Part shown: piece by piece, positions 42,001 through 64,000 of the stretch
Layout: each line of letters starts with the position of its first letter
Numbering within the stretch: the first letter of the stretch is position 1
DNA from: Nemertoderma westbladi
Taxonomy: Eukaryota; Animalia; Xenacoelomorpha
Assembly (NCBI GenBank): GCA_032718475.1
Contig: JAUCBJ010007236.1
Span: 39,737-103,736 of the forward strand
DNA: 64,000 nt
Direction: 5' to 3'
Position numbers and translations under genes: made by a program
The notes under the pieces: generated by a model
Seen by the model: only the letters and a program-made list of their open reading frames with translations
What the model was told of the DNA's origin: nothing
Database searches by the model: none

Positions 42001-44494
42001 CTCGGTATTTATTATCCACTCCTGGTTCCCTACCTCGGTATTTATTCTCCACTCCTGGTTCCCTACCTCGGTATTTATTCTCCTACCTTGTTCCCTACCT
42101 CGGTATTTATTCTCCACTCCTGGTTCCCTACCTCGGTATTTATTCTCCACTCCTGGTTCCCTACCTCGGTATTTATTCTCCACCCTGGTTCCCTACCTCG
42201 GTATTTATTCTCCTACGTGGTTCCCTACCTCGGTATTTATTCTCCACTCCTGGTTCCCTACCTCGGTATTTATTCTCCACTCCTGGTTCCCTACCTCGGT
42301 ATTTACTCTCCACCCTGGTTCCCTACCTCGGTATTTATTCTCCACCCTGGTTCTCTACCTCGGTATTTATTCTCCACTCCTGGTTCCCTACCTCGGTATT
42401 TATTCTCCACCCTCGTTCCCTACCTCGGTATTTATTCTCCACTCCTGGTTCCCTACCTCGGTATTTATTCTCCACTCCTGGTTCCCTACCTCGGTATTTC
42501 TTCTCCTACCTGGTTCCCTACCTCGGTATTTATTCTCCACTCCTGGTTCCCTACCTCGGTATGGTATTTATTCTCCACCCTCGTTCCCTACCTCGGTATT
42601 TATTCTCCACCCTGGTTCCCTACCTCGGTATTTATTCTCCTACCTGGTTCCCTACCTCGGTATTTATTCTCCACTCCTGGTTCCCTACCTCGGTATGGTA
42701 TTTATTCTCCACCCTCGTTCCCTACCTCGGTATTTATTCTCCTACCTGGTTCCCTACCTCGGTATGGTATTTATTCTCCACCCTGGTTCCCTACCTCGGT
42801 ATGGTATTTATTCTCCACTCTGGTTCCCTACCTCGGTATTTATTCTCCTCTCCTGGTTCCCTACCTCGGTATCTATTCTCCACCCTGGTTCCCTACCTCG
42901 GTATTTATTCCCCACCCTGGTTCCCTACCTCGGTATTTATTCTCCACCCTGGTTCCCTACCTCGGTATTTATTCTCCACTCCTGGTTCCCTACCTCGGTA
43001 TTTATTCTCCACTCCTGGTTCCCTCCTACCTCGGTATTTATTCTCCACCCTGGTTCCCTCCTACCTCGGTATTTATTCTCCACTCTGGTTCCCTACCTCG
43101 GTATCTATTCTCCACCCTGGTTCTCTACCTCGGTATTTATTCCCCACCCTGGTTCCCTACCTCGGTATTTATTCTCCACTCCTGGTTCCCTACCTCGGTA
43201 TTTATTCTCCACTCCTGGTTCCCTACCTCGGTATTTACTCTCCATCCTGGTTCCCTCCTACCTCGGTATTTACTCCCCACCCTGGTTCTCTACCTCGGTA
43301 TTTATTCCCCACCCTCGTTCCCTACCTCGGTATTTATTCTCCACTCCTGGTTCCCTACCTCGGTATTTATTCTCCACTCCTGGTTCCCTACCTCGGTATT
43401 TACTCTCCATCCTGGTTCCCTCCTACCTCGGTATTTACTCCCCACCCTGGTTCCCTACCTCGGTATTTATTCTCCACCCTGGTTCCCTACCTCGGTATTT
43501 ATTCTCCTACCTGGTTCCCTACCTCGGTATTTATTCTCCACCCTGGTTCCCTACCTCGGTATTTATTCTCCACCCTGGTTCCCTACCTCGGTATTTATTC
43601 TCCACCCTGGTTCCCTACCTCGGTATTTATTCTCCACCCTGGTTCCCTACCTCGGTATTTATTCTCCACCCTGGTTCCCTACCTCGGTATTTATTCTCCA
43701 CCCTGGTTCCCTACCTCGGTATTTATTCTCCACCCTGGTTCCCTACCTCGGTATTTATTCTCCACCCTGGTTCCCTACCTCGGTATTTATTCTCCACCCT
43801 GGTTCCCTACCTCGGTATTTATTCTCCACCCTGGTTCCCTCCTACCTCGGTATTTATTATCCACCCTGCTGGTTCCCTACCTCGGTATTTATTCTCCACC
43901 CTGGTTCCCTACCTCGGTATTTATTCTCCACTCCTGGTTCCCTACCTCGGTATTTATCCTCCACCCTGGTTCCCTACCTCGGTATTTATTCTCCACCCTG
44001 GTTCCCTACCTCGGTATTTATTCTCCTACCTGGTTCCCTACCTCGGTATTTATTCTCCACCCTGGTTCCCTACCTCGGTATTCATTCTCCACCCTGGTTC
44101 CCTGCCTCGGTATTTATTCTCCACTCCTGGTTCCCTCCTACCTCGGTATTTATTCTCCACTCTGGTTCCCTACCTCGGTATTTATTCTCCACTCCTGGTT
44201 CCCTACCTCGGTATTTATTCTCCACCCTGGTTCCCTACCTCGGTATTTATTCTCCACCCTGGTTCCCTACCTCGGTATTTATTCTCCACCCTGGTTCCCT
44301 ACCTCGGTATTTATTCTCCACTCTGGTTCCCTACCTCGGTATTTATTCTCCACTCCTGGTTCCCTACCTCGGTATTTATTCTCCACTCCTGGTTCCCTAC
44401 CTCGGTATTAATTCTCCACCCTGGTTCCCTGCCTCGGTATTTATTCTCCACCTTGGTTCCCTACCTCGGTATTAATTCTCCACTCCTGGTTCCC
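1..44494. repeat. Satellite array 1, 32/33-bp unit (+ strand GGTTCCCTACCTCGGTATTTATTCTCCAC[C/T/TC]CT), roughly 1,370 copies, continues past the left edge
   Basis: Uninterrupted tandem repeat with variants such as CCTACGTGG, CCTTCGTGG, CACTCATGG and a CCCTCCTAC 3-bp insertion. The copy number is estimated from length divided by unit size. The last unit overlaps the coding exon at 44465-44494. Confidence 0.99.
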
Positions 44495-44698
44495 CTTTTT
44501 GTGGTGGCAATGTGTCGTCGTAACGCTGCCGTTTCTCTTTATGCCATCGAGACACATCTTATCGTTGGTCAGCTCCTTGGCTCGGGTATAAGCGAAGAAC
44601 TGGCGCCCGCCGCCGTTGTGACAAGTTTTTAAGGTCGGGAATTTCGAATCAGTTTTTCCTCCTCCATCGAAGCACAGTTGTGATTGGTCAACTTTTAA
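44465..44698 (-). CDS. GALNT: GALNT exon, 234 nt, phase 0/0: lectin alpha and beta subdomains
   Basis: Acceptor ttttgtag|TTA at 44698. Translation: [78 protein letters not shown]. Donor GAG|gtaggg at 44464. Not in the supplied ORF track. Confidence 0.9.
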
Positions 44699-47600
44699 CT
44701 ACAAAATTGTCACGAATTAAATTTTTAATGAAAATTACTATAATGTCAAAACCCTAAAATTTAAAACTTAAAACGCAATATCGCATAGGTAGATAGATAG
44801 ATTTATTTATATATTATGCAAACAATAGAAACCAATACATTAACTCAGTAAAATTATTAATGTATAGTAAGTATTGTCCAACATAACATAAAGGATAACC
44901 CCTAAAGCTTTGCAGCTTATTTCCAAGGGGGTCCTTCAAGTTACTTGGTTACCAATACAAACTAAACTAACTACTGTATATAGAATAATTATATAATTTA
45001 AACTAAATAAGATACAAGAAATACAAAATTGATCATTATTACTAATTATTGCACATGCACCTATTTAATATTGAACTAAACTAAATACTGCTATTGACTA
45101 CTAGTTTTCAATATACGGTTACAGTACGAAACGTTTTTAATTTTTGAACATATATAAAACAACATTTTTAGGTTTTAGTCCACCAAAACCTAAAAAAACG
45201 AATTTTCATATTACACAAAAATTTAGATATTAAACTTTTAGATAAGCTACTGCTGAGCTCCGAGTAGGGCTGTGCTTATTAAACTTACAGCTCCAGCGTA
45301 ATCGAGATAAACATTAATCGGGGCCTCAGGCCAAATATTATCTAAATACCAGCGGAATGGTTTGCAATGTAGTCTATCTCGAATCAAATGTCTTTCTGTA
45401 AGATCACCAACTTCCATCAAATATGCGGCTAAAAAGTGAAATCATTAGTATAAGTTTTAAAACTACTTTTTATTTGTTTTATTACATAGTAAATTAGTAA
45501 TTTCCATATCACTCTTTCAATTAATCTAGGCTATGTAACTTACATGGGTTATAAAGGTACCAAATATATTTGTATTCATCAAGCCAAACTTCAACAGAAC
45601 GTTTCGTGTTTTTTGTTACGATCCCAGTTCCACCGGGCCACGAATACGGGGTGGATTTCCGGAATATGTGGCCGACGTGACTGCAGGTTACTGTGAGTAA
45701 CCGTCCACCACACTGCCAGATCTGTAGGGAAACATAATATGTGAATGGGAAAGAGATGTGGTATGGGAAAGTAAGCAGCCAGATCTGTTGGGAGAGAGAT
45801 GTGGTATGGGAAAGTAAGCAGCCAGATCTGTTGGGAGAGCGATGTGGTATGGGAAAGTAAGCGGCCAGATCTGTTGGGAGAGAGATGTGGTATGGGAAAG
45901 TAAGCAGCCAGATCTGTTGGGAGAGAGATGTGGTATGGGAAAGTAAGCAGCCAGATCTGTTGGGAGAGAGATGTGGTATGGGAAAGTAAGCAGCCAGATC
46001 TGTTGGGAGAGCGATGTGGTATGGGAAAGTAAGCGGCCAGATCTGTTGGGAGAGTGATGTGGTATGGGAAAGTAAGTAGCCACATCTGTTGGGAGAGCGA
46101 TGTGGTATGGGAAAGTAAGCGGCCAGATCTGTTGGGAGAGTGATGTGGTATGGGAAAGTAAGTAGCCACATCTGTTGGGAGAGCGATGTGGTATGGGAAA
46201 GTAAGCGGCCAGATCTGTTGGGAGAGAGATGTGGTATGGGAAAGTAAGCAGCCAGATCTGTTGGGAGAGAGATGTGGTATGGGAAAGTAAGCAGCCAGAC
46301 TGTTGGGAGAGAGATGTGGTATGGGAAAGTAAGCAGCCAGACTGTTGGGAGAGAGATGTGGTATGGGAAAGTAAGCGGCCAGATCTGTTGGGAGAGAGAT
46401 GTGGTATGGGAAAGTAAGCGGCCAGATCTGTTGGGAGAGAGATGTGGTTTGGGAAAGTAAGCAGCCAGATCTGTTGGGAGAGATATGTGGTATGGGAAAG
46501 TAAGCAGCCAGATCTGTTGGGAGAGTGATGTGGTATGGGAAAGTAAGCAGCCAGATCTGTTGGGAGAGAGATGTGGTATGGGAAAGTAAGCAGCCAGATC
46601 TGTTGGGAGAGAGATGTGGAATGGAAAAGTAAGCGGCCAGATCTGCTGGGAGAGAGATGTGGTATGGGAGAGTAAGCCGCCAGATCTGTTGGGAGAGAGA
46701 TGTGGTATAGGAAAGTAAGCGGCCAGATCTGCTGGGAGAGAGATGTGGTATGGGAGAGTAAGCATCCAGATCTGTTGGGAGAGAGATGTGGTATGGGAAA
46801 GTAAGCGGCCAGATCTGCTGGGAGAGAGATGTGGTATGGGAGAGTAAGCCGCCAGATCTGTTGGGAGAGAGATGTGGTATAGGAAAGTAAGCAGCCAGAT
46901 CTGTTGGGAGAGAGATGTGGTATGGGAGAGTAAGCAGCCAGATCTGTTGGGAGAGAGATGTGGTATGGGAAAGTAAGCAGCCAGATCTGTTGGGAGAGAG
47001 ATGTGGTATGGGAGAGTAAGCAGCCAGATCTGTTGGGAGAGAGATGTGGTATGGGAAAGTAAGCAGCCAGATCTGTTGGGAGAGAGATGTGGTATGGGAG
47101 AGTAAGCAGCCAGATCTGTTGGGAGAGAGATGTGGTATGGGAAAGTAAGCAGCCAGATCTGTTGGGAGAGAGATGTGGTATGGGAAAGTAAGCAGCCAGA
47201 TCTGTTGGGAGAGAGATGTGGTATGGGAGAGTAAGCAGCCAGATCTGTTGGGAGAGATATGTGGTATAGGTAAGTAAGCAGCCAGATCTGTTGGGAGAGA
47301 GATGTGGTATGGGAAAGTAAGCAGCCAGATCTGCTGGGAGAGAGATGTGGTATGGGAGAGTAAGCAGCCAGATCTGTTGGGAGAGAGATGTGGTATGGGA
47401 AAGTAAGCAGCCAGATCTGTTGGGAGAGTGATGTGGTATGGGAAAGTGAGCGGTCAGATCTGTTGGGAGAGAGATGTGGTATGGGAAAGTGAGCGGTCAG
47501 ATCTGTTGGGAGAGAGATGTGGTATGGGAGAGTAAGCAGCCAGATCTGTTGGGAGAGAGATGTGGTATGGGAAAGTAAGCAGCCAGATCTGTTGGGAGAG

Positions 47601-50600
47601 AGATGTGGTATGGGAAAGTAAGCAGCCAGATCTGTTGGGAGAGAGATGTGGTATGGAAAAGTGAGCGGTCAGATCTGTTGGGAGAGAGATGTGGTATGGG
47701 AGAGTAAGCAGCCAGATCTGTTGGGAGAGAGATGTGGTATGGGAAAGTAAGCAGCCAGATCTGTTGGGAGAGAGATGTGGTATGGGAAAGTAAGCAGCCA
47801 GATCTGTTGGGAGAGAGATGTGGTATGGGAAAGTAAGCAGCCAGATCTGTTGGGAGAGAGATGTGGTATGGGAAAGTAAGCAGCCAGATCTGTTGGGAGA
47901 GAGATGTGGTATGGAAAAGTGAGCGGTCAGATCTGTTGGGAGAGAGATGTGGTATGGGAAAGTAAGCAGCCAGATCTGTTGGGAGAGAGATGTGGTATGG
48001 GAAAGTAAGCAGCCAGATCTGTTGGGAGAGAGATGTGGTATGGGAAAGTAAGCAGCCAGATCTGTTGGGAGAGAGATGTGGTATGGGAAAGTAAGCAGCC
48101 AGATCTGTTGGGAGAGAGATGTGGTATAGGAAAGTAAGCAGCCAGATCTGTTGGGAGAGAGATGTGGTATGGGAAAGTAAGCAGCCAGATCTGTTGGGAG
48201 AGCGATGTGGTATGGGAAAGTAAGCAGCCAGATCTGTTGGGAGAGAGATGTGGTATGGAAAAGTGAGCGGTCAGATCTGTTGGGAGAGAGATGTGGTATG
48301 GAAAAGTGAGCGGTCAGATCTGTTGGGAGAGAGATGTGGTATGGGAAAGTAAGCAGCCAGATCTGTTGGGAGAGAGATGTGGTATGGAAAAGTGAGCGGT
48401 CAGATCTGTTGGGAGAGAGATGTGGTATGGGAGAGTAAGCAGCCAGATCTGTTGGGAGAGAGATGTGGTATGGGAAAGTAAGCAGCCAGATCTGTTGGGA
48501 GAGAGATGTGGTATGGAAAAGTGAGCGGTCAGATCTGTTGCGAGAGAGATGTGGTATGGGAGAGTAAGCAGCCAGATCTGTTGGGAGAGAGATGTGGTAT
48601 GGGAAAGTAAGCGGCCAGATCTGCTGGGAGAGAGATGTGGTATGGGAGAGTAAGCAGCCAGATCTGTTGGGAGAGAGATGTGGTATGGGAAAGTAAGCAG
48701 CCAGATCTGTTGGGAGAGAGATGTGGTATGGAAAAGTGAGCGGTCAGATCTGTTGGGAGAGAGATGTGGTATGGAAAAGTGAGCGGTCAGATCTGTTGGG
48801 AGAGAGATGTGGTATGTGAGAGTAAGCAGCCAGATCTGTTGGGAGAGAGATGTGGTAGGGGAAAGTAAGCAGCCAGATCTGTTGGGAGAGATATGTGGTA
48901 TAGGAAAGTAAGCAGCCAGATCTGTTGGGAGAGAGATGTGGTAGGGGAAAGTAAGCAGCCAGATCTGTTGGGAGAGATATGTGGTATAGGAAAGTAAGCG
49001 GCCAGATCTGTTGGGAGAGAGATGTGGTAGGGGAAAGTAAGCAGCCAGATCTGTTGGGAGAGATATGTGGTATAGGAAAGTAAGCAGCCAGACTGTTGGG
49101 AGAGAGATGTGGTATAGGAAAGTAAGCAGCCAGATCTGTTGGGAGAGAGATGTGGTATGGGAAAGTAAGCAGCCAGATCTGTTGGGAGAGAGATGTGGTA
49201 TGGGAAAGTAAGCAGCCAGATCTGTTGGGAGAGAGATGTGGTATGGAAAAGTGAGCGGTCAGATCTGTTGGGAGAGAGATGTGGTATGGGAGAGTAAGCA
49301 GCCAGATCTGTTGGGAGAGAGATGTGGTATGGGAAAGTAAGCAGCCAGATCTGTTGGGAGAGAGATGTGGTATGGGAAAGTAAGCAGCCAGATCTGTTGG
49401 GAGAGAGATGTGGTATGGGAAAGTAAGCAGCCAGATCTGTTGGGAGAGAGATGTGGTATGGGAAAGTAAGCAGCCAGATCTGTTGGGAGAGAGATGTGGT
49501 ATGGAAAAGTGAGCGGTCAGATCTGTTGGGAGAGAGATGTGGTATGGGAAAGTAAGCAGCCAGATCTGTTGGGAGAGAGATGTGGTATGGGAAAGTAAGC
49601 AGCCAGATCTGTTGGGAGAGAGATGTGGTATGGGAAAGTAAGCAGCCAGATCTGTTGGGAGAGAGATGTGGTATGGGAAAGTAAGCAGCCAGATCTGTTG
49701 GGAGAGAGATGTGGTATAGGAAAGTAAGCAGCCAGATCTGTTGGGAGAGAGATGTGGTATGGGAAAGTAAGCAGCCAGATCTGTTGGGAGAGCGACGTGG
49801 TATGGGAAAGTAAGCAGCCAGATCTGTTGGGAGAGAGATGTGGTATGGAAAAGTGAGCGGTCAGATCTGTTGGGAGAGAGATGTGGTATGGAAAAGTGAG
49901 CGGTCAGATCTGTTGGGAGAGAGATGTGGTATGGGAAAGTAAGCAGCCAGATCTGTTGGGAGAGAGATGTGGTATGGAAAAGTGAGCGGTCAGATCTGTT
50001 GGGAGAGAGATGTGGTATGGGAGAGTAAGCAGCCAGATCTGTTGGGAGAGAGATGTGGTATGGGAAAGTAAGCAGCCAGATCTGTTGGGAGAGAGATGTG
50101 GTATGGAAAAGTGAGCGGTCAGATCTGTTGCGAGAGAGATGTGGTATGGGAGAGTAAGCAGCCAGATCTGTTGGGAGAGAGATGTGGTATGGGAAAGTAA
50201 GCGGCCAGATCTGCTGGGAGAGAGATGTGGTATGGGAGAGTAAGCAGCCAGATCTGTTGGGAGAGAGATGTGGTATGGGAAAGTAAGCAGCCAGATCTGT
50301 TGGGAGAGAGATGTGGTATGGAAAAGTGAGCGGTCAGATCTGTTGGGAGAGAGATGTGGTATGGAAAAGTGAGCGGTCAGATCTGTTGGGAGAGAGATGT
50401 GGTATGTGAGAGTAAGCAGCCAGATCTGTTGGGAGAGAGATGTGGTAGGGGAAAGTAAGCAGCCAGATCTGTTGGGAGAGATATGTGGTATAGGAAAGTA
50501 AGCAGCCAGATCTGTTGGGAGAGAGATGTGGTAGGGGAAAGTAAGCAGCCAGATCTGTTGGGAGAGATATGTGGTATAGGAAAGTAAGCGGCCAGATCTG

Positions 50601-53600
50601 TTGGGAGAGAGATGTGGTAGGGGAAAGTAAGCAGCCAGATCTGTTGGGAGAGATATGTGGTATAGGAAAGTAAGCAGCCAGACTGTTGGGAGAGAGATGT
50701 GGTATAGGAAAGTAAGCAGCCAGATCTGTTGGGAGAGAGATGTGGTAGGGGAAAGTAAGCAGCCAGATCTGTTGGGAGAGATATGTGGTATAGGAAAGTA
50801 AGCAGCCAGATCTGTTGGGAGAGAGATGTGGTAGGGGAAAGTAAGCAGCCAGATCTGTTGGGAGAGATATGTGGTATAGGAAAGTAAGCAGCCAGATCTG
50901 TTGGGAGAGATATGTGGTATAGGAAAGTAAGCAGCCAGATCTGTTGGGAGAGAGATGTGGTAGGGGAAAGTAAGCAGCCAGATCTGTTGGGAGAGATATG
51001 TGGTATAGGAAAGTAAGCGGCCAGATCTGTTGGGAGAGAGATGTGGTAGGGGAAAGTAAGCAGCCAGATCTGTTGGGAGAGATATGTGGTATAGGAAAGT
51101 AAGCAGCCAGACTGTTGGGAGAGAGATGTGGTATAGGAAAGTAAGCAGCCAGATCTGTTGGGAGAGAGATGTGGTATGGGAAAGTAAGCAGCCAGATCTG
51201 TTGGGAGAGAGATGTGGTATGGGAAAGTAAGCAGCCAGATCTGTTGGGAGAGAGATGTGGTATGGAAAAGTGAGCGGTCAGATCTGTTGGGAGAGAGATG
51301 TGGTATGGGAGAGTAAGCAGCCAGATCTGTTGGGAGAGAGATGTGGTATGGGAAAGTAAGCAGCCAGATCTGTTGGGAGAGAGATGTGGTATGGGAAAGT
51401 AAGCAGCCAGATCTGTTGGGAGAGAGATGTGGTATGGGAAAGTAAGCAGCCAGATCTGTTGGGAGAGAGATGTGGTATGGGAAAGTAAGCAGCCAGATCT
51501 GTTGGGAGAGAGATGTGGTATGGAAAAGTGAGCGGTCAGATCTGTTGGGAGAGAGATGTGGTATGGGAAAGTAAGCAGCCAGATCTGTTGGGAGAGAGAT
51601 GTGGTATGGGAAAGTAAGCAGCCAGATCTGTTGGGAGAGAGATGTGGTATGGGAAAGTAAGCAGCCAGATCTGTTGGGAGAGAGATGTGGTATGGGAAAG
51701 TAAGCAGCCAGATCTGTTGGGAGAGAGATGTGGTATAGGAAAGTAAGCAGCCAGATCTGTTGGGAGAGAGATGTGGTATGGGAAAGTAAGCAGCCAGATC
51801 TGTTGGGAGAGCGACGTGGTATGGGAAAGTAAGCAGCCAGATCTGTTGGGAGAGAGATGTGGTATGGAAAAGTGAGCGGTCAGATCTGTTGGGAGAGAGA
51901 TGTGGTATGGAAAAGTGAGCGGTCAGATCTGTTGGGAGAGAGATGTGGTATGGGAAAGTAAGCAGCCAGATCTGTTGGGAGAGAGATGTGGTATGGAAAA
52001 GTGAGCGGTCAGATCTGTTGGGAGAGAGATGTGGTATGGGAGAGTAAGCAGCCAGATCTGTTGGGAGAGAGATGTGGTATGGGAAAGTAAGCAGCCAGAT
52101 CTGTTGGGAGAGAGATGTGGTATGGAAAAGTGAGCGGTCAGATCTGTTGCGAGAGAGATGTGGTATGGGAGAGTAAGCAGCCAGATCTGTTGGGAGAGAG
52201 ATGTGGTATGGGAAAGTAAGCGGCCAGATCTGCTGGGAGAGAGATGTGGTATGGGAGAGTAAGCAGCCAGATCTGTTGGGAGAGAGATGTGGTATGGGAA
52301 AGTAAGCAGCCAGATCTGTTGGGAGAGAGATGTGGTATGGAAAAGTGAGCGGTCAGATCTGTTGGGAGAGAGATGTGGTATGGAAAAGTGAGCGGTCAGA
52401 TCTGTTGGGAGAGAGATGTGGTATGTGAGAGTAAGCAGCCAGATCTGTTGGGAGAGAGATGTGGTAGGGGAAAGTAAGCAGCCAGATCTGTTGGGAGAGA
52501 TATGTGGTATAGGAAAGTAAGCAGCCAGATCTGTTGGGAGAGAGATGTGGTAGGGGAAAGTAAGCAGCCAGATCTGTTGGGAGAGATATGTGGTATAGGA
52601 AAGTAAGCGGCCAGATCTGTTGGGAGAGAGATGTGGTAGGGGAAAGTAAGCAGCCAGATCTGTTGGGAGAGATATGTGGTATAGGAAAGTAAGCAGCCAG
52701 ACTGTTGGGAGAGAGATGTGGTATAGGAAAGTAAGCAGCCAGATCTGTTGGGAGAGAGATGTGGTAGGGGAAAGTAAGCAGCCAGATCTGTTGGGAGAGA
52801 TATGTGGTATAGGAAAGTAAGCAGCCAGATCTGTTGGGAGAGAGATGTGGTAGGGGAAAGTAAGCAGCCAGATCTGTTGGGAGAGATATGTGGTATAGGA
52901 AAGTAAGCAGCCAGATCTGTTGGGAGAGATATGTGGTATAGGAAAGTAAGCAGCCAGATCTGTTGGGAGAGAGATGTGGTATGGGAAAGTAAGTAGCCAC
53001 ATCTGTTGGGAGAGAGATGTGGTATGGAAAAGTGAGCGGTCAGATCTGTTGGGAAAGAGATGTGCTATAGGAAAGTAAGCAGCCAGACTGTTGGGAGAGA
53101 GATGTGGTATGGGAAAGTAAGCAGCCAGGTCTGTTGGGAGAGATATGTGGTATGGGAAAGTAAGCAGCCAGACCTTTGTGAGAGAGATGTGGTATGGGAA
53201 AGTAAGCAGCCAGATCTGTTGGGAGAGAGATGTGGTATGGGAAAGTAAGCAGCCAGACCTTTGTGAGAGAGATGTGGTATGGGAAAGTAAGCGGCCAGAT
53301 CTGCTGGGAGAGAGATGTGGTATGGGAGAGTAAGCCGCCAGATCTGTTTTAGGTTTAATTATATGGTACAGGTCAGCAAACAGCCACATCTGTATCAATA
53401 GTAAGTTATTTTAGGTGACCTACAACAGAGACAGATATGTAGTGATATAAGATTACTTAGGTGTCATTGGCTTTATATAACCCGCCCAGTGAGTCCGCAC
53501 CAATAAAATAATACGTTTTTTTTCGATTCACTCACTCTAAGACTTATTTCAACATTTTCTCCACCCCATATTTTCATTTCCTTATCGTATGTGCCGATTT

Positions 53601-56600
53601 CCTCAAAGTATCTCTTTTCGATAGCAAAAAGTCCACCAGCCATAGTTGGAGTTCTGTAATTAAAAATAATTCTGAAGGAGTGAAAACAGACAATATAGGA
53701 CGTCTTTGAAATATAAGATAACATGTTTAGGGGCAATCATATAGGTATATGATAAGTTGAACAATCGTCATACAGTACATTGTTTGGTGCATATTGTTAT
53801 TATTGTTTTTACATGATGTATAATAAATGTATCTAATACACTGTTCTATTAATTATTGTAAGACACAAGCCGTGAGCCTTTACCAATAACCAGAGCATGC
53901 AAGATAATAGTAAATCAAAATCGACTTCCCAACCACCCAAAGATGTTCGCAGATTAACATGCAATATATGAGCTTGTGCGAATCACAAATCGATAAACGG
54001 ATTCATAAATATCATTCCTCAGGAAAAATATGACAAGTTTTGACCCCGAAAATGCAGAGACTTGTAGAAGAACACTCCTACCTAAAGGCGTAGCTGCGGT
54101 CATTAAACATGCTGCTTCGTTCTGATAAAGGCAACTGAATCCACGTAAAGATAACATTAACGCCGAATCCCCCGGCCGACGGTTCCCTAGTCCCGGGACG
54201 GTATGCCAGATTGGTCTCACGAATTACATTTATGTCAGGGGTGGTCACTGTTTTTCTGGAATAACAAATGTAATTTCCAATTTTAAGTATTTCCCAGGGA
54301 CTAAGGAATATAATTTTGAAAAATTTCGCGTCGATTCTAATTTTTTTGATGATTACGTTGATTGATTTCCATTTACTTTCATTTTCATCGCACATACTCA
54401 GAAATAAAATGTTGGCGATATATGAAAGAATGCCCGATACCCCGGAAATAAGCAATACAGTCTCCAAGGCAACCGTTTGACAAGGCAGAACATACCGGAA
54501 GGAATAAGTATCATCAGCTTTTATTTTGCCTTCTTCTAATTGGCTGTGCTCAAACCAATTAAACAGCATCTTTCGGTCGAAGCCTCCCGCCCACACATAG
54601 ATCGGCGATCTGGATCTCGGTGGCGGCATTTTGAAATTGTTAAAGTCAATAACTGAAATCACCGGAACAACCGAAGTTTTACTGAACGGGAAAATAATAA
54701 AATTTCCAAACGGTTGATTAATATTGAGACGTTAACACTACCGGTATTATTATGTCCAGCTTAAATTATAATTATTTACATTTTATTTTGACGAGAAAAT
54801 AATTTATACAGGATGTTTTAGAGAGAAGTTTAAAGACACATTTGTAACAATTTTAAACATCAGATTACGGCATTAATATTTGCCTGCAAGCACAGAATTA
54901 AATATATGGAAAACCGGTTATCTTTAATTTATAATAAACAGCTCTTCGTCAGAAATAAATGTTTACACTTTCAAAAATTTATATGATAACGGAACTCATG
55001 GATTAGTAACCTGATTATTAAACGGCCTTAAAAAAAGATATTCAGCAATTGATTTAACTACGATTGAGCCTCCCGGCTTGTTACAAGTGTGAGAGTGACA
55101 CACTTGCACCATTCTTATTCATAATTGTGGTCGATTGTATTCTACTCATGCCCTTAGGCCATCTTAATAAAGATGGGGTGATGGTAACTCCTCCTACTGT
55201 ACTGGCTGCAGAAGTCGAGGAAACCCAGCCTAGTACTGTACCTAACTGATCTAGACTTTGCTGATGACTTAGGAGTACTCTCAGAATCACTAGAGGGAGC
55301 CCAAAGGCCCCTCTGCTCATTGGAGCAGGTTGCTTCTGTGTTGGTCTTTTTGTAAACTCAAGAAGACCAAAATTTTGACAGAGAACCTCGACAGCCCTCA
55401 CGAAATGTCTGATCGTAAGGGAACAAGCTCCAGGAATAATGGCTTGCTTGAACAAGTGGATGACTTTTGCTACTTAGGATAATGAATCCGGAAATCATGA
55501 GAAGAATGACATTCGGATACGTAAGGGGAAGGCGATGGGCGTGGGCGTGGGCGTGGGCGTGGGCGTGGGCGTGGGCGTGGGCGTGGGCGTGGGCGTGGGC
55601 AGCGTTAAATAGTCTGTCCAGGAATTGGAAATCCCATAGAATAAAACGGAACCTCAATGATCGATTGTTTAGGGCAGCAGTAATACCAGTACTGTATTAT
55701 TCTCTAATTACTATATTCATATTCATATTCCTATATTGTATTAACATTCCGGCTTTGTATACCACAGGCAGTCTGGCAAATCTGTTTGCCAGACAGCCAC
55801 CCTAGCGATAGCTACAGTATGTCGTGCTTCTTACCATCGGCCATCACCGCAACTAGCGTTCTCTCCCCAAGTTCCTCTTCTAGAGTGGCTCCTGGCGACA
55901 TGCTGAACCGCTGTTGTACCAGTAGACATAGGCACTATTACTGTAGCTTATAGTTTTTACTTCATGTACCAAATTAAAACCCGATAACTAGATAAGTTAA
56001 GGAACCATGTGATGGATAGAGTACATACATTAACCCTTTGCATACCAAACATAAGTTACATAATTTTTCACTTCCAAGGAACAAGAAAAATATATTTGAT
56101 CGGACCAAGGTTTATTTTCCTGTCGTACCAGAGATTTTTAAATAAAGAGTATAATCATATTATTACTTATCCTACCCTAAAAGGCGGCACACTGCCGCCT
56201 TTAACCATTTTCGCAATTTTTAAGCCACACACTGCCGCCTTAATTTTTTCTAACAAAATGATTTCATAAATTATGTAATTAAAAATACCCTCAAACCAAT
56301 AGGAATGCCTTCAGCAATATTCTTTTCTAGACTAGTTTTTCCTGCCCAACACGAATATGAACTCCATTTTCCGCCCCAAAAGATATAAGAAAGTTTTAAG
56401 ACGTTTTAAATAAAGGCGGCACCCTGCCGCCCTGGGGGTCAGGATAATATATGTAAAGGCGGCACTCTGCCGACCTGGGGTAAAAAAGTTATAATTATAT
56501 AAAGGCGACACACTGCCGCCATTATGAACATGGTCCTGAATTATTTCGAATGAAAAAGGCGGCAGTGTGCCGCCTTTTTTTTAGTCTTTGTGTTGGTACG

Positions 56601-57582
56601 CAAAGGGTTAACATAGGCCTACTGTGTGTATCTGTATCCACTGTATCGTTTATTGTTCTGTACACTGAACGTATAATAGGTGAGTAGGTATTCCAGAGAT
56701 TTTGAAATAGAGGTTTAAATTTTCAACTACAATTTGATACATTTTTGACAACCTTGAGAATATATTAAACTGAATCACGTAACTGCTATTGTACGAAATC
56801 CTATTGTCAATATGCTATACCATAAACGCGTGTGGGGAAAAAAAGCAGAATTGTCGACGAATGCAGTTGAAGAAGATACATAGAATATGAATTCTAACGT
56901 GGGGAAATCCTTACACGCAAAGGGGAAATAACATAAAATAGTCCAACACCAAATGTAGCAGAATAACGGAAGGCCAGATCAATAATTAGCTCATTATGTG
57001 TACCTAATCGGGTGACTATAATCCCTTCTAGACAAGGCGGCCTCCTCTGGCCCGGAGAAGTACCAATTGAAGATTACATTGATATCAAAACCGCCGACCT
57101 GGTATTGGCCATTCTCAGGGTAATGACTGTAGTGCAAGGTTTCTTCGTGTAACACGTCAATCATTGGTACCACAGCCGTTCGTCTGCGAAAATACTCGTC
57201 AAACAATTAATAATGGGGCAGAGAAAGGTTTTAAACGTTCCTTCTATGGCTATTGCTAATTTTCTTCCATACATAACATAATAATTAATTGAGTAATAAT
57301 GAGACAGAAAACGTTTTTCAACTAATTTACATTGAAAAGTAATTATAAATAAATATAATTTATTCTTAACTAACCGGTCCCAGGCTATTTCTGCCAGAAG
57401 TGGTTCCAGCCAGCCTCTGGTGCACTCGCAATGGGAATCTAAGAAGATTAGTACGGGACCGACGGCCCTGTCTGCGCCTGCTAATCGAGCCTGGATTAAA
57501 CCCGACCGGTTGATTAAACGTACTAAGTGGATTACCGTGCCCAGGTTGGCGATATACTCTTCAAGCTGTTTACCAAGATGAT
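44465..57582 (-). CDS. GALNT: Polypeptide N-acetylgalactosaminyltransferase (GT27, GALNT1/GALNT13-like), partial multi-exon gene; 5' and 3' exons lie outside the window
   Basis: The spliced exons give GT1 motifs ([20 protein letters not shown] with the DxH motif, GWLEPLL), the Gal/GalNAc-T motif ([36 protein letters not shown]), the linker ([14 protein letters not shown]) and ricin-B lectin repeats (CFD...[13 protein letters not shown]...[10 protein letters not shown]). All splice sites are GT-AG and phases agree across all junctions. The paralog assignment is by eye only. Confidence 0.95.
44788..44940 (-). mobile_element. Possible 3'-end remnant of a LINE (CR1/L2-like): stem-loop followed by an AATAAA/(TCTA)n tail
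   Basis: The minus strand reads AGGACCCCCTTGGAAATAAGCTGCAAAGCTTTAGGGGTTATCCTT (imperfect hairpin), then about 90 nt later ATAAATAAATCTATCTATCTA. This is a resemblance to LINE 3' ends only, with no coding remnant seen. Confidence 0.3.
45289..45428 (-). CDS. GALNT: GALNT exon, 140 nt, phase 1/0: end of catalytic domain and linker
   Basis: Acceptor cactttttag|CC. Translation: (S)[46 protein letters not shown]. Donor GCT|gtaagt. Confidence 0.93.
45544..45721 (-). CDS. GALNT: GALNT exon, 178 nt, phase 0/1: WQCGG, GHIFR and flexible-loop region
   Basis: Acceptor tttccctacag|ATC. Translation: [59 protein letters not shown]. Donor CCAT|gtaagt. Confidence 0.95.
45747..53348. repeat. Satellite array 2, 43-bp unit (+ strand GGGAGAGAGATGTGGTATGGGAAAGTAAGCAGCCAGATCTGTT), roughly 177 copies, intronic
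   Basis: Period is 43 (AGATCT at 45781 and 45824). The array fills nearly all of the intron 45722-53535. Confidence 0.99.
53536..53653 (-). CDS. GALNT: GALNT exon, 118 nt, phase 2/0: Gal/GalNAc-T motif
   Basis: Acceptor tttttaattacag|A. Translation: [39 protein letters not shown]. Donor AGA|gtgagt. Confidence 0.96.
54082..54255 (-). CDS. GALNT: GALNT alternative exon variant 3, 174 nt, phase 2/2
   Basis: Acceptor tttgttattccag|A. Translation: [57 protein letters not shown](R). Donor AG|gtagga. Confidence 0.85.
54496..54681 (-). CDS. GALNT: GALNT alternative exon variant 2, 186 nt, phase 2/2
   Basis: Acceptor ttttcccgttcag|T. Translation: [61 protein letters not shown](R). Donor CG|gtatgt. 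Confidence 0.85.
55081..55700 (+). mobile_element. Decayed non-LTR retrotransposon reverse transcriptase fragment (RTE-like)
   Basis: Frameshifted RT motifs appear in the expected order: [16 protein letters not shown] (about 55097), DLDFADDL (55248), [16 protein letters not shown] (55447), [16 protein letters not shown] and [12 protein letters not shown] (about 55662). It may extend to about 55890. Confidence 0.85.
55536..55600 (+). repeat. (TGGGCG)n microsatellite, about 11 copies
   Basis: Directly visible, inside the RT remnant. Confidence 0.97.
56034..56607. mobile_element. Non-autonomous piggyBac-like DNA transposon (MITE), 574 bp
   Basis: Flanked by TTAA at 56030-56033 and 56608-56611. 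The terminal inverted repeats CCCTTTGCATACCAA and TTGGTACGCAAAGGG match at 14 of 15 positions. It has internal palindromic repeats AAAGGCGGCA-nnn-TGCCGCC and no transposase ORF. Confidence 0.85.
57004..57183 (-). CDS. GALNT: GALNT alternative exon variant 1, 180 nt, phase 2/2
   Basis: Acceptor tattttcgcag|A. Translation: [59 protein letters not shown](R). Donor AG|gtacac. Confidence 0.88.
57375..57582 (-). CDS. GALNT: GALNT exon, 208 nt, phase 1/2: GT1 motif with DxH
   Basis: Acceptor cttattatag|AT. Translation: (D)[68 protein letters not shown](R). Donor CG|gttagt. Confidence 0.96.
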
Positions 57583-57609: not shown

Positions 57610-60600
57610 GTACTGGTATCGCCTACCAGTACTATATCCACTCACCCAGTGTGCTGGCATCGCCTACCAGTACTATATCCACTCACCCTGTGTGCTGGTA
57701 TCGTCTACCAGTACTATATCCGCTCACCCAGTGTGCTGGCATCGTCTACCAGTACTATCTCCACTCACCCTGTGTGCTGGCATCGTCTACCAGTACTATA
57801 TCCACTCACCCTGTGTGCTGGTATCGTCTACCAGTACTATATCCGCTCACCCAGTGTGCTGGCATCGTCTACCAGTACTGTCTCCACTCACCCAGTGTGC
57901 TGACATCGCCTACCAGTACTATCTCCACTCACCCAGTGTGCTGGCATCGTCTACCAGTACTATCTCCACTCACCCAGTGTGCTGACATCGTCTACCAGTA
58001 CTATATCCACTCACCCAGTGTGCTGGCATCGCCTACCAGTACTATATCCACTCACCCTATGTGCTGCATCGCCTACCAGCACTATCTCCACTCACCCAGT
58101 GTGCTGGCATCGCCTACCAGTACTATATCCACTCACCCAGTGTGCTGGCATCGCCTACCAGTACTATATCCACTCACCCAGTGTACTGGCATCGCCTACC
58201 AGCACTATATCCACTCACCCAGTGTGCTGGTATCGTCTACCAGTACCATCTCCACTCACCCAGTGTGCTGGCATCGCCTACCAGTACTATATCCGCTCAC
58301 CCAGTGTGCTGGCATCGTCTACCAGTACTGTCTCCACTCACCCAGTGTGCTGACATCGCCTACCAGTACTATATCCACTCACCCAGTGTGCTGGCATCGC
58401 CTACCAGTACTATATCCACTCACCCTGTGTGCTGCATCGCCTACCAGTACTATATCCACTCACCCAGTGTGCTGGCATCGCCTACCAGTACTATATCCAC
58501 TCACCCAGTGTACTGGCATCGCCTACCAGTACTATATCCACTCACCCAGTGAGGCTGACATCGCCTACCAGTACTATATCCACTCACCCCGTGTGCTGGC
58601 ATCCTCTACCAGTACTATATCCACTCATCCAGTGTGATGGCATCGCCTACCAGTACTATATCCACTCACCCAGTGTGCTGGCATCGTCTACCAGTACTAT
58701 ATCCACTCACCCTGTGTGCCGCATCGTCTACCAGTACTATCTCCACTCACCCTGTGTGCTGGCATCGTCTACCAGTACTATCTCCACTCACCCTGTGTGC
58801 TGACATCGTCTACCAGTACTATCTCCACTCACCCTGTGTGCTGGCATCGTCTACCAGTACTATATCCACTCACCCAATGTGCTGGCATCGTCTACCAGTA
58901 CTATATCCACTCACCCAGTGTGCTGGCATCGTCTACCAGTACTATATCCACTCCCCCAGTGTGTTGACATCGTCTACCAGTACTATATCCACTCACCCAG
59001 TGTGCTGGCAACGTCTACCAGTACTATATCCACTCACCCAGTGTGCTGGCATCGTCTACCAGTACTATATCCACTCCCCCAGTGTGCTGACATCGTCTAC
59101 CAGTACTATATCCACTCACCCAGTGTGCTGGCAACGTCTACCAGTACTATATCCACTCACCCAGTGTGCTGGCATCGTCTACCAGTACTATATCCACTCA
59201 CCCAGTGTGCTGACATCGTCTACCAGTACTATATCCACTCACCCAGTGTGCTGGCATCGCCTACCAGCACTATCTCCACTCACCCTGTGTGCCGCATCGT
59301 CTACAAGTACTATATCCGCTCACCCAGTGTGCTGGCATCGTCTACCAGTACTGTCTCCACTCACCCAGTGTGCTGGCATCGTCTACCAGTACTATATCCA
59401 CTCACCCAGTGTGCTGACAACGTTTACCAGTACTATCTCCACTCACCCAGTGTGCTGGCATCGTCTACCAGTACTATATCCACTCACCCAGTGTGCTGGC
59501 ATCGTCTACCAGTACTATCTCCACTCACCCTGTGTGCTGGCATCGTCTACCAGTACTATATCCACTCACCCTGTGTGCTGGCATCGCCTACCAGTACTAT
59601 ATCCACCCACCCTGTGTGTTAGCATCGTCTACCAGTACTATCTCCCCTCACCCTGTGTGCTGGCATCGTCTACCAGTACTATCTCCAGTCACCCAGTGTG
59701 CTGACATCGCCTACCAGTACTATATCCACTCACCCTGTGTGCTGGCATCGTCTACCAGTACTATCTCCACTCACCCAGTGTGCTGGCATCGTCTACCAGT
59801 ACTATCTCCACTCACCCTGTGTGCCGCATCGTCTACCAGTACTATATCCACTCACCCTGTGTGCCGCATCGTCTACCAGTACTATATCCACTCACCCAGT
59901 GAGCTGACATCGTCTACCAGTTCTATCTCCACTCACCCTGTGTGCTGGGATCGTCTACCAGTACTATATCCACTCACCAGTGTGATGGCATCGTCTACCA
60001 GTATTATCTCCACTCACCCTGTGTGCTGGCATCGTCTACCAGTACTATCTCCACTCACCCTGTGTGCTGGCATCATCTACCAGTACTATATCCACTCACC
60101 CTATGTGCTGGCATCGTCTACCAGTACTATATCCACTCACCCTGTGTGCTGGCATCGTCTACCAGTACTATCTCCACTCACCCTGTGTGCTGGCATCGTC
60201 TACCAGTACTATCTCCATTCACCCTGTGTGCTGGCATCGTCTACCAGTACTATCTCCTTCACACTGTGTGCTGGCATCGTCTACCAGTACTATCTCCACT
60301 CACCCAGTGTGCTGGCATCGTCTACCAGTACTATCTCCACTCACCCTGTGTGCTGGCATCATCTACCAGTACTATATCCACTCACCCTGTGTGCCGCATC
60401 GTCTACCAGTACTATCTCCACTCACCCTGTGTGCTGGCATCGTCTACCAGTACTATCTCCACTCACCCAGTGTGCTGGCATCGTCTACCAGTACTATCTC
60501 CACTCACCCTGTGTGCTGGCATCATCTACCAGTACTATATCCACTCACCCTGTGTGCCGCATCGTCTACCAGTACTATATCCACTCACCCAGTGTGCTGG

Positions 60601-63600
60601 CATCGTCTACCAGTACTATCTCCACTCACCCTGTGTGCTGGCATCATCTACCAGTACTATATCCACTCACCCTGTGTGCCGCATCGTCTACCAGTACTAT
60701 ATCCACTCACCCTGTGTGCTGGGATCGTCTACCAGTACTATATCCACTCACCAGTGTGATGGCATCGTCTACCAGTATTATATCCACTCACCCTGTGTGC
60801 TGGCATCGTCTACCAGTACTATCTCCACTCACCCTGTGTGCTGGCATCATCTACCAGTACTATATCCACTCACCCTATGTGCTGGCATCGTCTACCAGTA
60901 CTATATCCACTCCCCCAGTGTGCTGACATCGTCTACCAGTACTATATCCACTCACCCTGTGTGCTGGCATCGTCTACCAGTACTATCTCCACTCACCCTG
61001 TATGCTGGCAACGTCTACCAGTACTATATCCACTCACCAGTGTGCTGGCATCGTCTACCAGTACTATATCCACTCACCCAGTGTGCTGACATCGTCTACC
61101 AGTACTATATCCACCCACCCTGTGTGCTGGCAACGTCTACCAGTACTATCTCCACTCACCCTGTGTGCCGCATCGTCTACCAGTACTATATCCACTCACC
61201 CAGTGTGCTGGCATCGTCTACCAGTACTATATCCACTCACCCAGTGTGCTGACATCGTCTACCAGTACTATCTCCACTCACCCTGTGTGCTGGCAACGTC
61301 TACCAGTACTATATCCACTCACCCAGTGTGCTGGCATCGTCTACCAGTACTATATCCACTCCTCACCCAGTGTGCTGACATCGTCTACCAGTACTATATC
61401 CACCCACCCTGTGTGCTGGCATCGTCTACCAGTACTATCTCCACTCACCCTGTGTGCCGCATCGTCTACCAGTACTATATCCACTCACCCAGTGTGCTGA
61501 CATCGTCTACCAGTACTATATCCACCCACCCTGTGTGCTGGCATCGTCTACCAGTACTATCTCCACTCACCCTGTGTGCCGCATCGTCTACCAGTACTAT
61601 ATCCACTCACCCAGTGTGCTGACATCGTCTACCAGTACTATCTCCACTCACCCTGTGTGCTGGCATCGTCTACCAGTACTATCTCCACTCACCCTATGTG
61701 CTGGCATCGTCTACCAGTACTATATCCACTCCCCCAGTGTGCTGACATCGTCTACCAGTACTATATCCACTCACCCTGTGTGCTGGCATCGTCTACCAGT
61801 ACTATCTCCACTCACCCTGTATGCTGGCAACGTCTACCAGTACTATATCCACTCACCAGTGTGATGGCATCGTCTACCAGTACTATATCCACTCACCCAG
61901 TGTGCTGACATCGTCTACCAGTACTATATCCACCCACCCTGTGTGCTGGCAACGTCTACCAGTACTATCTCCACTCACCCTGTGTGCCGCATCGTCTACC
62001 AGTACTATATCCACTCACCCAGTGTGCTGGCATCGTCTACCAGTACTATATCCACTCACCCAGTGTGCTGACATCGTCTACCAGTACTATCTCCACTCAC
62101 CCTGTGTGCTGGCAACGTCTACCAGTACTATATCCACTCACCCAGTGTGCTGGCATCGTCTACCAGTACTATATCCACTCCTCACCCAGTGTGCTGACAT
62201 CGTCTACCAGTACTATATCCACCCACCCTGTGTGCTGGCAACGTCTACCAGTACTATCTCCACTCACCCTGTGTGCCGCATCGTCTACCAGTACTATATC
62301 CACTCACCCAGTGTGCTGACATCGTCTACCAGTACTATATCCACCCACCCTGTGTGCTGGCAACGTCTACCAGTACTATCTCCACTCACCCTGTGTGCCG
62401 CATCGTCTACCAGTACTATATCCACTCACCCAGTGTGCTGACATCGTCTACCAGTACTATATCCACCCACCCTGTGTGCTGGCAACGTCTACCAGTACTA
62501 TCTCCACTCACCCTGTGTGCCGCATCGTCTACCAGTACTATATCCACTCACCAAGTGTGCTGGCATCGTCTACCAGTACTATATCCACTCACCCAGTGTG
62601 CTGGCAACGTCTACCAGTACTATATCCACCCACCCAGTGTGCTGGCATCGCCTACCAGTACTATCTCCACTCACCCTGTGTGCTGGCATCGTCTACCAGT
62701 ACTATATCCACTCACCCTGTGTGCTGGCATCGCCTACCGGTACTATATCCACTCACCCTGTGTGTTAGCATCGTCTACCAGTACTATCTCCCCTCACCCT
62801 GTGTGCTGGCATCGTCTACCAGTACTATCTCCACTCACCCAGTGTGCTGACATCGCCTACCAGTACTATATCCACTCACCCAGTGTGCTGGCATCGTCTA
62901 CCAGTACTATCTCCACTTACCCAGTGTGCTGGCATCGTCTACCAGTACTATCTCCACTCACCCTGTGTGCCGCATCGTCTACCAGTACTATATCCACTCA
63001 CCCTGTGTGCCGCATCGTCTACCAGTACTATCTCCACTCACCCTGTGTGCTGGCATCGTCTACCAGTACATTATCCACTCACCCAGTGAGCTGACATCGT
63101 CTACCAGTACTATCTCCACTCACCCTGTGTGCTGGGATCGTCTACCAGTACTATATCCACTCACCAGTGTGATGGCATCGTCTACCAGTATTATCTCCAC
63201 TCACCCTGTGTGCTGGCATCGTCTACCAGTACTATCTCCACTCACCCTGTGTGCCGCATCGTCTACCAGTACTATATCCACTCACCCTGTGTGCCGCATC
63301 GTCTACCAGTACTATATCCACTCACCCAGTGAGCTGACATCGTCTACCAGTTCTATCTCCACTCACCCTGTGTGCTGGGATCGTCTACCAGTACTATATC
63401 CACTCACCAGTGTGATGGCATCGTCTACCAGTATTATCTCCACTCACCCTGTGTGCTGGCATCGTCTACCAGTACTATCTCCACTGACCCTGTGTGCTGG
63501 CATCATCTACCAGTACTATATCCACTCACCCTATGTGCTGGCATCGTCTACCAGTACTATATCCACTCACCCTGTGTGCTGGCATCGTCTACCAGTACCA

Positions 63601-64000
63601 TCTCCACTCACCCTGTGTGCTGGCATCGTCTACCAGTACTATCTCCACTCACCCTGTGTGCTGGCATCGTCTACCAGTACTATCTCCACTCACCCTGTGT
63701 GCTGGCATCGTCTACCAGTACTATATCCACTCACCCTGTGTGCCGCATCGTCTACCAGTACTATCTCCACTCACCCTGTGTGCTGGCATCGTCTACCAGT
63801 ACTATCTCCACTCACCCTGTGTGCTGGCATCGTCTACCAGTACAATCTCCACTCCACTCACCCTGTGTGCCGCATCGTCTACCAGTACTATCTCCACTCA
63901 CCCTGTGTGCTGGCATCGTCTACCAGTACTATCTCCACTCACCCTGTGTGCTGGCATCGTCTACCAGTACAATCTCCACTCCACTCACCCTGTGTGCTGG
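57610..64000. repeat. Satellite array 3, 41-bp unit (+ strand CC[A/T]GTGTGCTGGCATCGTCTACCAGTACTAT[A/C]TCCACTCAC), roughly 156 copies in the window, continues past the right edge
   Basis: Period is 41 (CTCACC at 57641 and 57682), with 40-bp variants (GTGCCGCATC, CTCACCAGTG). Confidence 0.99.

Follow-up and report, generated by a model that had tools for sequence, protein, structure and literature searches.

A stretch of 64,000 nucleotides (nt) from Nemertoderma westbladi (contig JAUCBJ010007236.1, positions 39,737 to 103,736; hereafter "the window") contains a polypeptide GalNAc-transferase (GalNAc-T) gene on the minus strand, of which the central and 3′ portions are covered. One exon of its catalytic domain is present in three tandem copies, here called A, B and C, which appear to be old duplicates of the exon for a core strand, the loop that follows it and the GGF..FxW wall of the acceptor groove. 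At least two of the copies are probably used one at a time. In the proposed mechanism, the variant exons would be spliced in singly, giving three forms of the catalytic domain, each with its own predicted peptide preference; the shift in specificity would come about via the loop and the groove rim, with the pocket formed by F280 and W282 (numbering of GalNAc-T2, T2) being kept.

The exon anatomy is real and beyond chance. All three copies have AG acceptors, GT donors and no in-frame stops, and their splice sites are at exactly homologous positions (Table 1). Any one of them bridges the exon with the DSH motif and the exon with the PTMAGG motif, together with three further exons, without encountering a stop. 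The first-pass annotation of this DNA had described three intact exons in phase 2/2 with canonical sites, each alone linking its constitutive neighbours in frame, and strongly different loops before GGF; the exons were found as described, the in-frame linkage was borne out by joining the coordinates, and the loops do differ in both length and charge. Scored in all six frames with a profile of 94 family segments, the window gave 43 bits for A, 35 for C and 23 for B, and no fourth full copy was found by this profile across the window, scores elsewhere being at most about 5 bits. A profile made from A, B and C and compared with the PDB gave 18 hits, 14 of which were GalNAc-T structures (best E 3e-11). 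The introns are 191 nt before A (57374-57184), 2322 nt between A and B, and 240 nt between B and C (54495-54256). Only the groove exon is repeated in the gene: when six whole relatives were compared with the window, the other five exons were each matched once, among the matches listed. The arrangement is that expected of a cluster of mutually exclusive exons, i.e., tandem homologous exons with similar length, equal phase and canonical sites.

The copies could instead be remnants of duplicated genes nested within one another, or an artefact of assembly, rather than alternatives in a single transcript. Such artefacts do occur, as identical tandem copies in three sturgeon gene models show, and the gene's first and last exons are outside the window (the 5′ exons lie past position 64000, and the last lectin repeat is also outside). 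However, a pairwise protein identity of 29-36% corresponds to neither a collapsed nor a repeated assembly, the matches listed show neither a further DxH or PTMAGG exon nor a repeat of any other constitutive exon within the window, and A, B and C group together in a tree of the segment, albeit weakly (Shimodaira-Hasegawa-like approximate likelihood ratio test, SH-aLRT, 80, with a long-branch warning). This explanation is, therefore, very improbable.

At codon positions 1/2/3, identity in the three pairs of copies is 0.45/0.53/0.24, 0.49/0.49/0.28 and 0.52/0.52/0.38, the third position being near saturation, and there is a synonymous difference in 37 of the 52 codons for residues that are identical between copies. 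A, B and C match 10, 8 and 11 of the 16 conserved columns of the family, respectively, and 5/25, 6/27 and 3/23 of its variable columns. In a neutral simulation (5000 runs; substitutions only, indels being left out), the reading frame together with AG and GT survived in 8-13% of runs at 0.25 changes per site and in 1-2% at 0.5. Third positions are saturated and the family motifs have been kept, and therefore the purifying selection is old: as far as comparison of sequences can tell, these data show that A, B and C were all under purifying selection for a long time, until fairly recently. An old duplication under selection, as proposed earlier, is thus supported by the codon-position, conserved-column and neutral-simulation tests. 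The mean identity of the copies to the family (0.36, 0.33 and 0.31) is at the low end relative to pairs of equal flank identity (0.39 ± 0.07, n = 984). B is the most diverged copy, with the longest branch in the segment tree (1.96) and the lowest family score.

Single inclusion of these exons is probable because relatives swap the same exon and the fold has room for one copy. In RefSeq models of a T1-like gene of the crinoid Antedon mediterranea, the isoforms X3 and X4 (XP_071961399.1/XP_071961404.1) are identical over the first 253 and the last 279 residues, the sole difference being the groove exon, with the same borders; in models from the oysters Magallana gigas and C. angulata, isoforms X1 and X2 swap a slightly longer version of the segment in another subfamily. 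Twenty mollusc sequences (mostly Logan assemblies with short contigs) comprised 17 with variant 1, one with variant 2, two fragments and none with both. With regard to the fold, an AlphaFold model of an oyster record containing two copies (94-row alignment, mean predicted local distance difference test, pLDDT, 85) has the core strand 239-248 formed by the first copy, with the second copy, residues 288-355, at pLDDT < 50. A run with 14 rows gave a pLDDT of 38 and was discarded.

Several observations weigh against one-at-a-time use of working copies. The alignment behind the oyster model consists mostly of single-copy rows, which biases it toward one-copy folding. The length of each variant is a multiple of three, so nonsense-mediated decay would be unable to remove double or skipped forms; when coordinates were joined by script, 8/8 combinations of skipping and of single, double or triple inclusion were in frame. 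At 2322 and 240 nt, the introns between the copies are well over the steric limit of <40 nt, and candidate clusters with lengths divisible by three often turned out to be tandem cassettes (PMC4165533). Enforcement by frame and nonsense-mediated decay, by a short intron or by U12 incompatibility was not found in the cluster, whose sites are ordinary GT-AG. Isoforms with both copies are present in RefSeq for Antedon (X1 and X2) and for the chiton Liolophura (X2, X1 having a single copy), and the use of the oyster variants appears heavily skewed (17 versus 1). Finally, all three copies lack the Trp that follows GGFx in 60 of 66 non-redundant relatives, and B and C also lack the Asp that follows PxI in 62 of the 66.

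The replacement of the Asp in B and C would also be expected if one copy (most likely A, which is nearest to the family) did nearly all of the work, B and C having once been used but now being rare or recently dead, which would in practice leave one enzyme, and so would the skewed usage in oysters, the low family score and long branch of B, and its loss of 8 of the 16 conserved columns. We consider this unlikely: B and C keep the frame and AG/GT, have good polypyrimidine tracts (14/17 and 11/17, respectively), and match U1 better at their donors (7/9 and 6/9) than does A, whose donor is the weakest (5/9); at 0.25 changes per site, no more than about 8-13% of the simulated exons stayed intact; and some single-copy relatives, too, have N, S or V in place of the Asp. 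The in-frame combinations and the RefSeq models with both copies would suit a leaky tandem cassette, in which two copies are often included, or in which B, the intron and C form one 600-nt exon, the excess looping out of the fold. The B-C intron has a length divisible by three and is stop-free in the frame of B (53/5000 shuffles), and B, the intron and C form a single open frame of 217 residues. Nevertheless, the B-C intron has 34% G+C, as opposed to 43-49% for the exons, and is without a Pfam match; B and C share the homologous splice positions noted above; three full copies diverging under selection fit only single-copy folding, AlphaFold placing one copy; and 0/18 long mollusc sequences carry both variants. 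A leaky cassette is, thus, quite unlikely, and the reading preferred here is that two or more of the copies are used singly.

Exon A could be aligned to T2 residues 248-290, fixing the positions of F280, K281 and W282. In T2, F280, W282 and F361 surround the proline of the substrate and K281 gates the rim of the groove (bioRxiv 2020.06.25.171371); PMC11423303 agrees on the role of the aromatics. The alignment and the former source together support the earlier placing of this segment in the wall of the acceptor groove, with the equivalents of F280 and W282 inside it. These two residues are identical in A, B and C. Judging from this, the pocket aromatics are not the specificity switch and, since they are invariant, any switch would lie in the loop and rim residues. 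At the rim, the position of T2 K281 is N, N and T in A, B and C, respectively, and that of T2 L270 is Q, W and S. We infer that the peptide preferences of the isoforms would differ via loop length and charge and via these rim residues. Residues T283 and Q285 of T4 and L270 and V255 of T2 may have a role too.

The choice between the copies may be made by competing RNA pairing, in which docking elements in the intron before A would pair with selector elements further downstream. The candidate elements (Table 1) fit the docking/selector model (PMC6071210). Pairing of D1 and D2 with the stretch just after B would mask the branch region of A and loop out A and B, so that C would be used; B would be favoured if they paired instead with the stretch that precedes it; and, if D1 and D2 were unpaired, A would be used. 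For docking in the upstream intron, with whole introns compared, the best shared core was reached in 10 and 12 of 400 shuffles, and the two best cores jointly in 2/400 and 3/400; for docking in the downstream intron the values were 82/400 and 107/400, which is not above chance. Co-folding with the partner after B gave -24.7 versus -10.3 ± 3.6, a value reached by 0/40 shuffles (the window for this having been picked after the fact), and, when 325 windows were scanned evenly, the one after B came first (-22.0 kcal/mol). No leftover homology was found between flanking introns in 6/6 pairs (31-199 of 200 shuffles reach the observed values), and therefore the selector cores do not owe their likeness to an overall resemblance of the introns; helices between introns were found in 2/6 pairs at p 0.03-0.04, uncorrected. 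This model is weakened by the facts that the two-core statistic was picked after the sites had been seen, that co-folding with the partner before B was no better than shuffles (24/40), and that the lead of the post-B window is narrow, the runners-up being at -21.4 and -20.9. Docking/selector control is, hence, suggestive but somewhat less likely than not.

Further features of the two short introns (57374-57184 and 54495-54256) were observed. Both are stop-free in the frame of the upstream exon (24/5000 and 53/5000 shuffles, respectively; 2 of 6 introns tested), and all of their YAG triplets are in one frame. At about 57232-57197 on the minus strand, overlapping D2, the end of the intron preceding A reads as 12 residues that resemble the beginning of a variant exon, although no acceptor is present; this resemblance is the best of 7656 intronic positions and was reached by 13/400 shuffles. 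Perhaps it is what remains of a fourth copy at its 5′ end.

The gene has the features of family GT27: a GT-A domain with DxH, the Gal/GalNAc-T motif (13 residues, with a match to PF02709), the third metal His and a C-terminal ricin-type lectin domain. The flexible-loop exon, with the third metal His in the sequence CSHVGHIFR, had GalNAc-T1 (T1) as its best match (E 6e-23). In quick trees of constitutive residues (31 and 29 hand-chosen rows; another tree had 70), the gene was inside a broad T1/T13-like group with SH-aLRT 92 and 91 (unstarred), on a long end branch; its sister was an acoel protein or, once the acoel row was dropped, the vertebrate T1/T13 pair. The relative with the highest identity is a sea star protein. 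The top identity to any relative is about 50-52%, and reaches 67% for the DxH exon. When a close relative was sought with an alignment of three exons among longer proteins, 0/1360 candidates qualified, and a full profile search gave 261 matches, none of them close to the gene. By sequence, this is probably a diverged GalNAc-T1-like gene, whose placement within the group shifts with the rows chosen.

Table 1. Exons and candidate RNA elements of the GalNAc-T gene, in order along the minus strand (coordinates are those of the window)
Feature	Coordinates	Strand	Properties	Evidence
Constitutive exon, DSH (DxH) metal motif	57375..57582	-	phase 2 end	Pfam PF00535, E 8e-13
Candidate docking element D1	57262..57274	-	intron before A	complementarity
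Candidate docking element D2	57195..57209	-	covers both YTRAY branch candidates of A (-24, -16)	complementarity
Variant exon A	57004..57183	-	180 nt, phase 2/2, donor TAG/GTACAC; loop before GGF 18 residues, net charge -3	
Candidate selector before B	54902..54913	-	pairs D1, 12 bp	cofold not above shuffles
Candidate selector before B	54787..54795	-	pairs D2, 9 bp	cofold not above shuffles
Variant exon B	54496..54681	-	186 nt, phase 2/2, donor GTATGT; loop 20 residues, Pro/Arg-rich, net charge +2	
Candidate selector before C	54470..54484	-	12 nt past donor of B; pairs D2, 15 bp	complementarity and cofold
Candidate selector before C	54418..54430	-	pairs D1, 13 bp, nested with D2 helix	complementarity
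Variant exon C	54082..54255	-	174 nt, phase 2/2, donor GTAGGA; loop 16 residues, net charge +1	
Constitutive exon, Gal/GalNAc-T motif (PTMAGG and 11 residues further on)	53536..53653	-		Pfam PF02709
Constitutive exon, third metal His and flexible loop	45544..45721	-	single copy	corresponds to T1 residues 327-386
Constitutive exon, last part of catalytic domain plus linker	45289..45428	-		
Constitutive exon, ricin-type lectin (alpha, beta)	44465..44698	-		Pfam PF00652, E 2e-13

Three tandem arrays fill the long introns of the gene, with no unique islands in any of them. A 32-bp array at 2-44494 (minus strand) repeats the donor word of the lectin exon 1192 times, and a 43-bp array at 45746-53348 (minus strand) repeats the acceptor word of the flexible-loop exon 130 times. 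Both of these minisatellites are built from an exon-intron junction, and the spliceosome must choose one site among hundreds of look-alikes. The third array, at 57613-64000, has a unit of 41 bp in about 156 copies and ends 30 nt before the DxH exon. Between A and B, at 56030-56611, there is an element resembling a miniature inverted-repeat transposable element, possibly piggyBac-like; its terminal inverted repeats are 19 nt long and begin with TTAACCC, and it has GC palindromes inside. At 55188-55482 (plus strand), beside (GGCGTG)n at 55531-55600, there are broken frames without a Pfam hit, whose words DFADD and DDFCYLG are reminiscent of the reverse transcriptase of a non-LTR retroelement.

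Alternative exons are known from other GalNAc-Ts. PGANT9 of Drosophila had been named as the precedent in the first-pass annotation; it is a lectin-domain case, and the closest published system is the catalytic-domain switch of PGANT5A/B, the Drosophila T1 orthologue, in which residues 398-457 differ, as do tissue use, peptide specificity and peptide kinetics (PMC12776162, bioRxiv Dec 2025). PGANT5 encodes a T1-type enzyme, as the present gene probably does, and its swapped catalytic-domain exon is in the length class of A, B and C. However, its swap corresponds to the T1 327-386 flexible-loop exon, which is single here, and it has two variants with modest differences, whereas the present gene has three diverged ones in the strand, loop and FxW exon. 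A charge switch in the lectin alpha repeat of PGANT9A/B alters peptide preference (PMC6115407); the homologous exons of PGANT9 are in that repeat, whereas the present cassette is in the catalytic groove. In C. elegans, gly-5 has three validated exclusive exons, 9a, 9b and 9c, of which 9b and 9c exclude each other sterically across a 34-nt intron, the limit being about 40 nt (PMC4165533). Both genes have three homologous exons with lengths divisible by three, exclusive in gly-5 and probably so here; the gly-5 cassette is, however, in the lectin alpha repeat (after residue 491), and steric exclusion is impossible in the present gene. GALNT13, Pgant5 and gly-5 have been listed as convergent tandem-exon substitutions (PMC9741552). 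The resemblance to clusters with the Dscam exon 6 type of control (PMC6071210) would lie in the candidate upstream docking elements, whose complements precede B and C; in the present gene, there is no selector for A, and the partner of B is energetically unremarkable. No study of the groove exon was found in the open-licence literature (supplements were outside the scope of the search). The present cassette would operate in the manner of PGANT5A/B or gly-5, in a different exon and with far more divergence between the copies. Thus, the splicing device and its use in retuning GalNAc-Ts are already known, and what is gained here is a matter of place and degree, not of kind.

Among gene models, the Antedon X3/X4 pair is the nearest likeness: the same exon, the same borders, single-copy isoforms and, apparently, the same broad T1-like group. 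It differs in having two copies of 70% identity and both-copy isoforms as well, and consists of gene models alone, no paper being found; no copy-to-copy orthology of the pair with A, B or C was demonstrated. The mollusc "probable N-acetylgalactosaminyltransferase 9" isoforms X1/X2 (XP_034309215.1/XP_034309216.1; XP_052683469.1/XP_052683470.1) swap the same groove segment, and the pair is present in bivalves, a gastropod and a chiton; it belongs to another subfamily, its swap begins earlier (at the LEP helix), and its two copies are 44% identical, so that the duplication is likely to be independent. In the echinoderms, a search for isoform pairs in sea stars found one variant in each of the four clusters examined.

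The segment was found in 448 of 460 proteins, a sample biased by the fact that repeated segments raise search scores and made up mostly of gene models rather than transcripts. It was in tandem in 18 of them: three with identical copies, which are the sturgeon models and probably artefacts, and 15 with diverged copies, i.e., four mollusc gly-9-like, one oyster T5-like with three copies, eight arthropod with two to five, and two from Antedon. Gene models of shrimp, woodlouse, psyllid and oyster (P0121, P0326, P0330 and P0368) have three to five diverged copies of the segment in a row; these may be unannotated multi-exon clusters. The differing borders and subfamilies point to independent duplications, and we infer that these took place independently across subfamilies. 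A wider reading would be that the groove exon is an unrecognised hot spot of convergent duplication (T1-like in the crinoid and the present gene, gly-9-like in molluscs, pgant9-like in arthropods, with 2 to 5 copies) giving repertoires of specificity, and that the present gene is its extreme, its three copies differing as much as subfamilies do from one another and being selected through an RNA docking site in two parts, which would conceal the branch point of A. Taken as a whole, this wider reading is possible but rather doubtful.

The choice of GalNAc-T decides where mucin-type O-glycans begin. If one-at-a-time use is true, three isoforms differing in one groove segment of 58-62 residues would be a natural swap experiment for the specificity that loop and rim confer for peptides, a question now studied via paralogues that differ everywhere. 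Together with the crinoid, mollusc and arthropod models, the present gene suggests that gene counts may understate the diversity of GalNAc-Ts in invertebrates, and that many long "double-segment" proteins in the databases may be mis-stitched alternative exons.

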